Shown one piece after another: positions 28,399 to 29,808 of a stretch of 64,000 nt of DNA; position 1 is the first letter of the stretch; every line of letters starts with the position of its first letter. This DNA comes from Gemmatimonadota bacterium. GTDB taxonomy: Bacteria; Gemmatimonadota; Gemmatimonadetes; Gemmatimonadales; GWC2-71-9. The stretch is from positions 4,005 to 68,004 of the forward strand of contig VGVQ01000021.1 of NCBI GenBank assembly GCA_016874005.1. Reading direction: 5' to 3'. The notes beneath the pieces were generated by a model. It had not been told where the DNA came from and did no database searches. It saw nothing but the letters and a program-made list of their open reading frames with translations. The position numbers were made by a program, and so were the translations under genes.

Positions 28399-29808
28399 GT
28401 GTCCGACCGTACCGACTCGTCCTCGCCGGAGCGCGGGGAGCCCGGCGTTGCCGGAGCCGACTTCGCCGGGATCCGCGACGCGCTGCCGGTCGTCGCCCGG
28501 GGCAACAGCCTGGTGCTGGCGACCCCACCCGCGGCTGGGTATGCGGTCCCGGTGCTGGTGGAATCGCTGAAACGCCCCGCGGTCGAACCCGCCACGGCCA
28601 TCGGTCTGTTGATCGCGCCAGAAGGAGCGGTTGAGCCGTGGGTTGCCGCGGCCGGACGGGCGGCGGAAGCGGCTGGTCGCCGTTCCGCCGGCGCGGCCAC
28701 CGCCGCCAGGGCCCGCCACCACCTCTCGAGCGGGCGGGTCGATCTGGTGGTGACCACCCTGGTCGTGGCCGGACACCTCCTCGAGCAGAGCGGCCTCGAG
28801 GTGGATCGCCTCGGGTGGGTGGTCCTGGCCTGGCCGGAACTCGAGCCCGACGCCGACGGGTTCGTCCGGCTGTTCGCCGATCTCCCCAAGGAAACGCCCC
28901 GCCTCATCGTCACCGCCGACCCCGCCGGCATCGCCCCGCTGGCCGAGCGCCACGCCTGGCGGGCGGCCCGGGCGGGGACGTTAGGCAGCGACCCGACCGA
29001 ACGCCTGCCCCGACTCCGCGCGGCCGGCACCTCGTGGAGCGGGCGGGTCGGGGCGCTGGCGGCGCTGGCCGACCTGACCGGCCGCGACGAGGCAACGGTC
29101 TGGACGGTGGACGAGGCGGATCACCAAGCCATCGGTGCCGGGCTCGCGGCCCACGGCGTGACCGCGCGGTTCGTCTCCGGGACCCAATTGGACCGCTCGC
29201 CAACCTGGTTTTTCGATGCCGCGCCCCCCGCGGCGTTGGCCGCGGCGGACCCGGTTCACTCGGTGGTCTTGGCTCCGCCGGGTGTCGAACGCTACCTCGC
29301 CCGGGTCGCCGCTCGGGTCGACCCCGTTTCGCTTCCCAGCGACACCGACGCCGCCACCGCCGCGATCGCCGCTGACCGCCGAGCGGTTCGAGCCCGGGTG
29401 CAAGCCGGCCCCGACCGAGGCGCCTTCGCGACCATCGCCCCCCTGCTCGACCAGTTTCCGGCCGCCGACGTCGCCGTTGCCCTCCAGTCGCTTTGGCTCG
29501 AGGCCCGGGCCGGAAGCCCCGCGCCGGCTCCGCAGGTCAGAGCCGCCCGGCCAGCCAAGGTATGGATCAGCGCGGGGAAGAAAGACGCCGTTGGGACGAC
29601 CGATGTCATCGGGCTGCTCACCGGTGAGCTCAAGCTGGCTCGCCACGCCATCGGCAGGGTGGAGGTTCGGGACACCTTCACCCTGATCGAGTCCACCTCG
29701 GAGGACGACGCCAAGGCGCTGGCGACCAAGCTGGCCGGGCTCACCCTCAAGGGCCGGCGACTCACCGCCCGAGTCGATCGCGGGCCTGGCCCCCGCCGAC
29801 CCGCTTGA
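28399..29808 (+). CDS. Degenerate DEAD-box (DeaD-like) protein with C-terminal DbpA RNA-binding domain
   Basis: C-terminal WISAGKKDAVGTTDVIG...IGRVEVRDTFTLIE is DbpA-type. The helicase scaffold is recognisable but Walker A and DEAD are lost. Confidence 0.7.
   Translation: MSDRTDSSSPERGEPGVAGADFAGIRDALPVVARGNSLVLATPPAAGYAVPVLVESLKRPAVEPATAIGLLIAPEGAVEPWVAAAGRAAEAAGRRSAGAATAARARHHLSSGRVDLVVTTLVVAGHLLEQSGLEVDRLGWVVLAWPELEPDADGFVRLFADLPKETPRLIVTADPAGIAPLAERHAWRAARAGTLGSDPTERLPRLRAAGTSWSGRVGALAALADLTGRDEATVWTVDEADHQAIGAGLAAHGVTARFVSGTQLDRSPTWFFDAAPPAALAAADPVHSVVLAPPGVERYLARVAARVDPVSLPSDTDAATAAIAADRRAVRARVQAGPDRGAFATIAPLLDQFPAADVAVALQSLWLEARAGSPAPAPQVRAARPAKVWISAGKKDAVGTTDVIGLLTGELKLARHAIGRVEVRDTFTLIESTSEDDAKALATKLAGLTLKGRRLTARVDRGPGPRRPA

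Follow-up and report, generated by a model that had tools for sequence, protein, structure and literature searches.

The gene at positions 28399-29808 of the forward strand of a 64,000-nucleotide stretch of Gemmatimonadota DNA (contig VGVQ01000021.1 of assembly GCA_016874005.1; the whole stretch is referred to here as the window) encodes a 469-residue protein, P0001, which appears to be a catalytically dead paralogue of the dimeric helicases of the DeaD/CsdA/CshA type and not of DbpA. Comparative and modelling evidence indicates a conserved and selected gene, whose product is a pseudoenzyme with a retained fold, and not a decaying pseudogene. The protein probably acts as an ATP-independent RNA-binding protein. 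An earlier sequence-only reading of this DNA had described an intact 469-residue open reading frame (ORF) with eroded DEAD-box motifs and a well-kept DbpA domain, and had argued against a decaying pseudogene. These points are borne out: the ORF list and translation show no internal stop in the frame, the quoted peptides are all present and are placed on motifs I to III by hhalign and profile search, the DbpA domain matches PF03880 (residues 388-458, E-value 2e-12, 47 bits against a cut-off of 25.6), and the gene is conserved and selected, with two RecA-like folds predicted and the RNA-binding domain (RBD) kept.

P0001 is laid out as a RecA1-like domain, a shortened RecA2-like domain, a region corresponding to the DeaD dimerisation domain and a DbpA-type RBD (Table 1). 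The former motifs were placed by hhalign against two intact helicases of the same lineage, which paired ATPPAAGYAVP of P0001 with AMTGSGKTAAF, LIAPEGA with VLAPTRELA, DLVVTT with DVLVATPGR, VVLAWPE with LVLDEAD, LIVTAD with LLFSAT and TVWT with LVFT. The segment aligned with Walker A, ATPPAAGY, is thus without the lysine and threonine of the motif, and where helicases have D-E-A-D, P0001 reads A-W-P-E. The replacing residues are themselves conserved. P43 and P44 at former motif I are near-invariant in the pseudo-helicase family, P74 in former motif Ia is invariant among close orthologues (A1), and W145-P146-E147 is at least 90% conserved across 81 family members, with the tryptophan occupying the position of the catalytic glutamate; most of the 176 collected relatives read WPE at the motif II position. 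The conserved glutamine of the Q motif is absent from P0001 and its close orthologues, the Q motif being retained only in the basal relatives L136, L139, L131, L129 and L134.

The RecA2-like domain has lost motifs outright. Alignments to canonical Gemmatimonadota DeaD reveal two deletions common to all branches of the family, the first of about 26-32 residues, with which the motif V region (TDVAARGLD) is gone (…ILVATDVAARGLD…), and a second, shorter one that removes motif VI (HRIGRTGRAG). Neither G[ST]GK[ST] nor HRxGRxGR was found in any of the 176 relatives. With regard to Pfam, PF03880 is the only family that matches P0001, with no match to DEAD or Helicase_C, and across the 81 family members DbpA is matched in all 81, DeaD_dimer (PF25399) in 14 (best E-value 3.9e-5), DEAD weakly in one and Helicase_C in none. 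With neither the lysine and threonine of Walker A nor the catalytic residues of DEAD left, and with the Q motif and motifs V and VI lost as well, P0001 is very unlikely to bind or hydrolyse ATP.

A literal DEAD tetrapeptide, which the sequence-only reading did not mention, adjoins former motif IV at residues 238-241. It was considered as a displaced motif II and ruled out, since it is unconserved in orthologues and lies in the wrong domain; it is a coincidence, and one that could mislead motif searches.

The loss of motifs has not obscured the fold. A profile of 27 orthologues (A1) searched against the Protein Data Bank (PDB) matched E. coli DbpA over both the core and the RBD (E-value 3e-9) and Dbp5 over core positions 59-261 (E-value 3e-7), as well as DDX6, CshA and eIF4A. 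The AlphaFold2 model of P0001 has a mean predicted local distance difference test score (pLDDT) of 86.9, and 327 residues score at least 90. When this model was used in Foldseek, DbpA came first (E-value 5.5e-18), followed by CshA, Hera, DDX6 and eIF4A, with a probability of 1.00. Furthermore, VIA-align superposed the RecA1-like domain on the N-terminal domains of Hera, CshA and eIF4A with Z scores of about 19 and a root-mean-square deviation (rmsd) of 2.8-3.1 A over about 175 residues. Over the whole chain the model is closest to CshA (Z 20.4, model residues 16-358), and the structural alignments with CshA and eIF4A extend to residues 311-358, through the RecA2-like part. RecA-like folds, the lack of which would have counted against the sequence-only reading, are present in the model, and the N-terminal 380 residues are a helicase core of two tandem RecA-like domains.

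The descent of this core can be read from what follows it. PF25399 gives no significant match in P0001 itself; the three helices that the model shows within residues 315-372 (315-336, 340-352 and 355-372) correspond in the alignment to the DeaD_dimer domain of canonical DeaD. Moreover, hhalign aligns the family profile with canonical Gemmatimonadota DeaD from end to end (4-461 on 7-554, probability 99%, E-value 4e-18). The presence of the dimerisation domain and this end-to-end alignment point to an ancestor of the DeaD/CsdA/CshA type. The possibility that the protein is a DbpA orthologue was ruled out, as the NCBIfam equivalog NF008744 scores 31 bits against a cut-off of 524, with the RBD alone aligning, and as a dimerisation domain is present. 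DbpA and YxiN bind hairpin 92 of 23S rRNA specifically, and the sequence-only reading had carried this binding over from the DbpA domain. That claim proved over-specific: the ancestry being that of DeaD and not of DbpA, hairpin-92 specificity is not transferable to the RBD of the pseudo-helicase.

The family is large and appears to be confined to one phylum. An exhaustive HMMER search recovered 618 representatives of clusters at 50% identity with E-values of at most 1e-3, of which 260 have E-values of at most 1e-10, and hundreds of genomes carry an orthologue that is intact and full-length, with identities down to about 25%. A scan for the peptide pattern of the dimerisation domain in 185,579 species genomes (one each) returned 83 relatives, all of them from Gemmatimonadota, and the Atlas clusters of the family are commonest in this phylum. 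The scan gave a partial match in one uncultured Gemmatimonas metagenome-assembled genome (L112). No family members were found outside Gemmatimonadota in the collections searched; a few labels of metagenome-assembled genomes (for example Deltaproteobacteria and Anaerolineae) may be binning or labelling noise. Profile matches with E-values of at most 1e-10 were obtained in 267 of the 301 sampled Gemmatimonadota genomes, among them all 125 of the window's own family and 64 of the 69 of the next family. By contrast, none of the 22 genomes of f9 (same class) and f10-f12 (other classes of the phylum) matched the profile, and no DbpA domain was detected in the five f10-f12 genomes examined. The count of 267 seems to be largely specific to the pseudo-form, because the canonical DeaD of genome G010, the only form that this genome has, falls below the profile threshold. 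Four of the genomes counted here (G057, G097, G157 and G182) are flagged as unpublished, and G057 also supplies locus L024 of the synteny table; none of the individual statements depends on them.

The gene is under purifying selection. In the closest orthologue pair (L014/L017), the only unsaturated one, dN is 0.058 and dS 0.52, giving a dN/dS ratio (ω) of 0.11, well below 1; by domain, ω is 0.16 in the RecA1-like domain, 0.10 in the RecA2-like domain, 0.03 in the dimerisation domain and 0.04 in the RBD, and for the neighbouring thymidine kinase gene, tdk, it is 0.03. The GC content at third codon positions (GC3) is 0.85 in every domain, like that of tdk and gcvP. Full-length orthologues share 32-66% identity with P0001. 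The in-frame stops flagged in some orthologues by the genome search are genuine stop codons of shorter orthologues that the profile overran. The start is conserved as well: the arrangement GAGG-N5-GTG is kept in five same-genus orthologues, whose first residues are VSD or VSS, and homologues in databases begin mostly with MSD.

None of the orthologues keeps DEAD, as the canonical paralogues of the sister species do, and they can be arranged by degree of erosion, the less eroded forms coming from other families of the class Gemmatimonadetes. The least eroded, L136 and L139, keep the Q motif and GKT, read DGAA or DGAS at motif II and match Pfam DEAD with 53-56 bits, without Helicase_C; they share the RecA2 deletions that remove motifs V and VI. 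These half-dead forms might bind nucleotide without hydrolysing it. The genome that hosts L136 (G106) additionally has a fully canonical DeaD (L137). In L131, L129, L134 and L130 the Walker A lysine is lost. In a third branch motif II has become LAWAD, and the proteins end in RG/RGG-like tails of 60-150 residues that are rich in Arg, Gly, Pro and Asp; tails of this kind were noted in P0106-P0172 and in L136 and L129. E. coli DeaD has an RG-rich tail that those of one pseudo-helicase branch resemble. Such a tail is absent from P0001.

A quick maximum-likelihood tree of 46 sequences, rooted on the RhlE-like helicase of the window's genome, gathers all 40 pseudo-forms in one clade (Shimodaira-Hasegawa-like approximate likelihood ratio test, SH-aLRT, 100) apart from five canonical DeaDs, with the GKT-keeping forms branching close to its base and a derived clade (96) formed by those that read WAD or WPE; the single outgroup, the quick search and the long branches limit how closely this branching is to be read. 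The simplest history would be that motifs V and VI were lost once, in a duplicate of DeaD, that the ATP site of RecA1 was then eroded stepwise across lineages, and that Gemmatimonadales fixed new residues, namely PP in former motif I and WPE in former motif II, together with R104 and R168.

With regard to function, the best reading is that this ATP-dead DeaD paralogue probably acts as an RNA-binding protein that needs no ATP. The RBD and its tail have a net charge of +7 in P0001 and of +4 to +12 across orthologues, and the net charge of the RecA2-like domain has a median of -3 versus +8 in canonical DeaD. The protein would probably pair as a homodimer by means of the dimerisation domain that it has kept, and the RBD and tail, which are strongly basic, would bring each subunit into contact with structured RNA. 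The RecA-like core, its RecA2 part having lost both the positive charge and motifs IV-VI, would no longer clamp RNA and could instead serve as a rigid scaffold or as a surface for protein contacts, with the former ATP cleft rebuilt around the newly fixed PP, WPE, R104 and R168 rather than merely decayed. The analogy to DeaD, CshA and Hera would make rRNA or ribosome-assembly intermediates, or structured mRNAs, the likeliest substrates, and the action might be chaperone-like, bridging or holding RNA, which is the least certain step of the scheme. The sequence-only reading had proposed an ATP-independent chaperone or regulator that binds the ribosome; its ATP independence agrees with the loss of all ATP motifs, and its ribosomal role stays conjectural.

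Several points weigh against this proposal. RNA binding, dimerisation and the loss of ATPase activity are throughout deduced from sequence and model, and only ancestry ties the pseudo-helicase to ribosomes. The residues of the former ATP site (PP, WPE, R104 and R168) are the best-conserved part of the core and could form a new ligand site. Since basal relatives keep the Q motif and GKT, some members of the family may bind nucleotide, P0001 not by any known mode. Additionally, the protein evolves fast, at about three times the rate of tdk, with identities of 45-55% within the genus versus 77-79% for tdk. In deeper pairs ω reaches 0.35-0.6 versus 0.07-0.19 for tdk; these values, obtained by the Nei-Gojobori method (NG86) in a 70%-GC genome, are unreliable because dS is near saturation (about 1) outside the one closest pair, and can be taken as upper-bound impressions only.

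The conservation of the old cleft invites a different explanation, in which PP, WPE, R104 and R168 bind another small molecule or a peptide and so control the binding of RNA by the RBD. The most conserved columns of the core do fall exactly at the positions of old motifs I, II and III, which by homology (fold Z about 19) are spatially adjacent in the RecA1 fold, and the Q motif and GKT of the basal relatives suggest that nucleotide binding may have outlived catalysis. However, the prolines that replace the glycine-rich P-loop, together with the lost lysine and threonine, would abolish the anion hole, and the conserved residues vary by branch (PP/WPE, PxD/WAD, GxG/DGA), so that there is no single new site throughout the family. 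The genomic context suggests no ligand either, as tdk-coaE represents shared gene order and not evidence of coupling. A remodelled ligand sensor is accordingly considered unlikely.

The retained dimerisation domain would also allow the pseudo-helicase to form heterodimers with an active DeaD or to compete for its RNA sites, thereby tuning DeaD. In four of the five sister species of the same genus the pseudo-helicase does coexist with a canonical DeaD of the same layout (DEAD, Helicase_C, DeaD_dimer and DbpA); genome G197 lacks one. The sequence-only reading had advised looking for a second intact deaD. None was found in the window's own genome, which is 97% complete in 49 contigs; its one intact DEAD-box helicase is an RhlE-like protein of 447 residues with DEAD and Helicase_C domains and without an RBD, and this was the best match in the search for DeaD, at 44% identity to the DeaD core of a sister species. 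The pseudo-helicase thus holds the sole DbpA domain of that genome. In a class sample of 151 genomes, a DbpA domain was present in 111, of which 104 have exactly one, and in the families examined the lone DbpA-domain gene is the pseudo-form. Given the genomes without DeaD and the single DbpA genes, a partner-dependent role cannot be the general function. The pseudo-helicase does not depend on a canonical DeaD partner, and a role as regulatory partner or decoy is thought improbable.

The same distribution raises the tentative idea, which may well prove incorrect, that the ATP-dead paralogue has functionally replaced DeaD in most Gemmatimonadetes, a class in which canonical DeaD is patchy or was not found and in which the pseudo-helicase is nearly universal and usually the sole DbpA-domain protein. 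If this were true, a selected DeaD-type role would run in this class wholly without ATP hydrolysis, for example by holding or bridging rRNA or mRNA, and could serve ribosome assembly or cold adaptation. The graded series from forms that keep the Q motif and GKT without motifs V and VI, through those that have lost the lysine, to those with PP and WPE would then dissect which DEAD-box functions need ATP.

Finally, high-GC DNA yields many long chance ORFs, six of which overlap this gene, and no Pfam family matches its first 380 residues, yet a decaying pseudogene or a mis-called ORF is refuted, with hardly any doubt left, by the conserved start codon and ribosome-binding site, the low ω, the GC3, the intact orthologues in hundreds of genomes and the confidently predicted fold. 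The six ORFs, of 97-589 residues, lie on both strands, as is usual for 70%-GC DNA, and the two of them that were checked have no Pfam match.

Table 1. Features of the pseudo-helicase gene, its neighbours and related loci. Coordinates are those of the window unless a contig or locus is named; residues are those of P0001.
Feature	Coordinates	Strand	Basis or remark
Pseudo-helicase gene, 469 aa (P0001), GTG start	28399-29808	+	Stop-free frame, orthologues, GC3
Shine-Dalgarno GAGG, 5 nt 5' of the GTG start	28390..28393	+	GAGGCACCCGTG, read directly
RecA1-like domain, residues 25-196, every ATP motif eroded	28471..28986	+	Structure matches; Dbp5, DDX6 and eIF4A profile matches
Former motif I (Walker A), LATPPAAGYAVP replacing AxTGSGKTxAF, residues 40-51	28516..28551	+	hhalign
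Former motif Ia, APEGA replacing PTRELA, residues 73-77	28615..28629	+	hhalign
Former motif Ib, VVTTL replacing VATPGR, residues 117-121	28747..28761	+	Profile search, hhalign
Former motif II, VVLAWPE replacing VLDEAD, residues 141-147	28819..28839	+	Profile search, hhalign
Former motif III, LIVTAD replacing LFSAT, residues 169-174	28903..28920	+	hhalign; near-invariant R168 just before
Shortened RecA2-like domain, residues 200-312 (about 113 aa versus about 165)	28996..29334	+	DeaD alignments, model, CshA and eIF4A alignments
Chance DEAD tetrapeptide, residues 238-241, RecA2-like domain	29110..29121	+	Unconserved
Three-helix region homologous to the DeaD/CsdA dimerisation domain, residues 315-372	29341..29514	+	PF25399, DeaD alignment, model
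DbpA-type RBD, residues 384-462 (Pfam 388-458), plus short basic tail RVDRGPGPRRPA	29548..29808	+	PF03880
DUF2784 membrane-protein gene, divergent from the pseudo-helicase gene	27909-28319	-	PF10861, E-value 4e-40
tdk (thymidine kinase)	29868-30473	+	Pfam TK, E-value 1e-49; 59 nt 3' of the pseudo-helicase gene
coaE (dephospho-CoA kinase), longest ORF	30391..31077	+	Pfam CoaE, E-value 4e-53, match from ORF residue 32
gcvH and single-chain gcvP (967 aa), after coaE	31132-34455	+	
Intact RhlE-like helicase of the window's genome	G000 contig C2:180586-181689 (-); locus L001:730-2073	-	
Less eroded relative L136, genome G106	L136:1599-3521	+	Keeps Q motif and GKT; Pfam DEAD above cut-off
Less eroded relative L139, genome G049	L139:1642-3225	+	Keeps Q motif and GKT; Pfam DEAD above cut-off

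The surroundings of the gene are conserved in the order aminotransferase(-) … pseudo-helicase(+), tdk, coaE, gcvH. The sequence-only reading had placed the gene at the head of tdk and coaE, and both indeed follow on the same strand, tdk so closely, and with no predicted terminator seen in between, that it is probably co-transcribed with the pseudo-helicase gene. In the window's family tdk adjoins the pseudo-helicase gene in all 29 loci; in 27 of them it lies immediately 3' and is read in the same direction, and in the other two (L029 and L031) it is on the opposite strand. The large majority of 80 more distant loci keep the order as well, among them a branch with proteins of about 437 residues and Gemmatimonadaceae/Gemmatimonas, and the tdk-coaE-gcvH block retains its order across most Gemmatimonadales loci examined. 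In the f4-f8 loci examined, no tdk was found within 3 kb of the pseudo-helicase gene, and the aminotransferase and pseudo-helicase genes of more distant relatives are separated by 1-2 kb containing other genes.

In the window, the longest coaE ORF starts with a GTG at 30391 and overlaps the end of tdk by 83 nt (30391-30473); as the CoaE match starts no earlier than ORF residue 32, the actual start codon probably lies further 3', near the tdk stop. On the other side, the start codons of the DUF2784 gene and the pseudo-helicase gene are about 80-120 bp apart, depending on the true start of the former. No Rfam family matched within 27500-30200 at E-values up to 1.

Selected pseudo-helicases are barely documented. 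The literature search found no published description of the Gemmatimonadota family and no paper describing a bacterial DEAD-box pseudo-helicase. The family described here is large, syntenic and lineage-defining for Gemmatimonadetes, with stepwise erosion of the ATP site after the loss of motifs V and VI, and it makes a tractable case for testing which tasks of DeaD/CshA-type proteins do not require ATP. It could also be used as a clade marker for a widespread and poorly studied soil phylum. In databases its members are named "DbpA RNA binding domain-containing protein", "hypothetical protein" or "ATP-dependent RNA helicase DeaD"; the last of these labels is wrong and should be corrected.

Among known systems, DeaD/CsdA of E. 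coli and CshA of Firmicutes, which are dimeric cold-shock DEAD-box RNA helicases, share with the pseudo-helicase the order RecA1, RecA2, PF25399 and PF03880. Unlike in these proteins, the Q, Walker A, DEAD and SAT motifs are replaced in the pseudo-helicase and motifs V and VI are deleted, and its RecA2-like domain has shrunk by about 50 residues and lost its basic character; ATPase and unwinding activities would not be expected. With DbpA of E. coli and YxiN of B. subtilis it has in common the PF03880 RBD, and DbpA tops both the Foldseek and the PDB profile matches. However, DbpA and YxiN are monomers without a dimerisation domain, whereas the pseudo-helicase has one and groups with DeaD. Hera of Thermus thermophilus combines a dimerisation domain and an RBD by the same logic, and its RecA1 domain superposes on that of the model (Z about 19, rmsd 3.1 A) with 18-19% identity, the highest among the structural matches; unlike the pseudo-helicase, Hera is an active ATPase with all motifs, and Pfam assigns its RBD to a family of its own, Hera_RBD, to which one of the 81 pseudo-helicase members shows a weak match.

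The clearest precedent for a selected DEAD-box pseudo-helicase, and the closest in function, is the eukaryotic Utp25/Def, a protein of the small-subunit (SSU) processome with degenerate and dispensable DEAD-box motifs that acts non-catalytically in ribosome assembly (PMC9539457). A description from 2022 presents yeast Utp25 as the first pseudo-helicase to be fully validated (PMC9539457). The Gemmatimonadota protein differs in being bacterial and of independent origin and in its DbpA-type RBD and dimerisation domain, both of which Utp25 lacks. Furthermore, Utp25 keeps both RecA domains in full, whereas the Gemmatimonadota family has deleted motifs V and VI.

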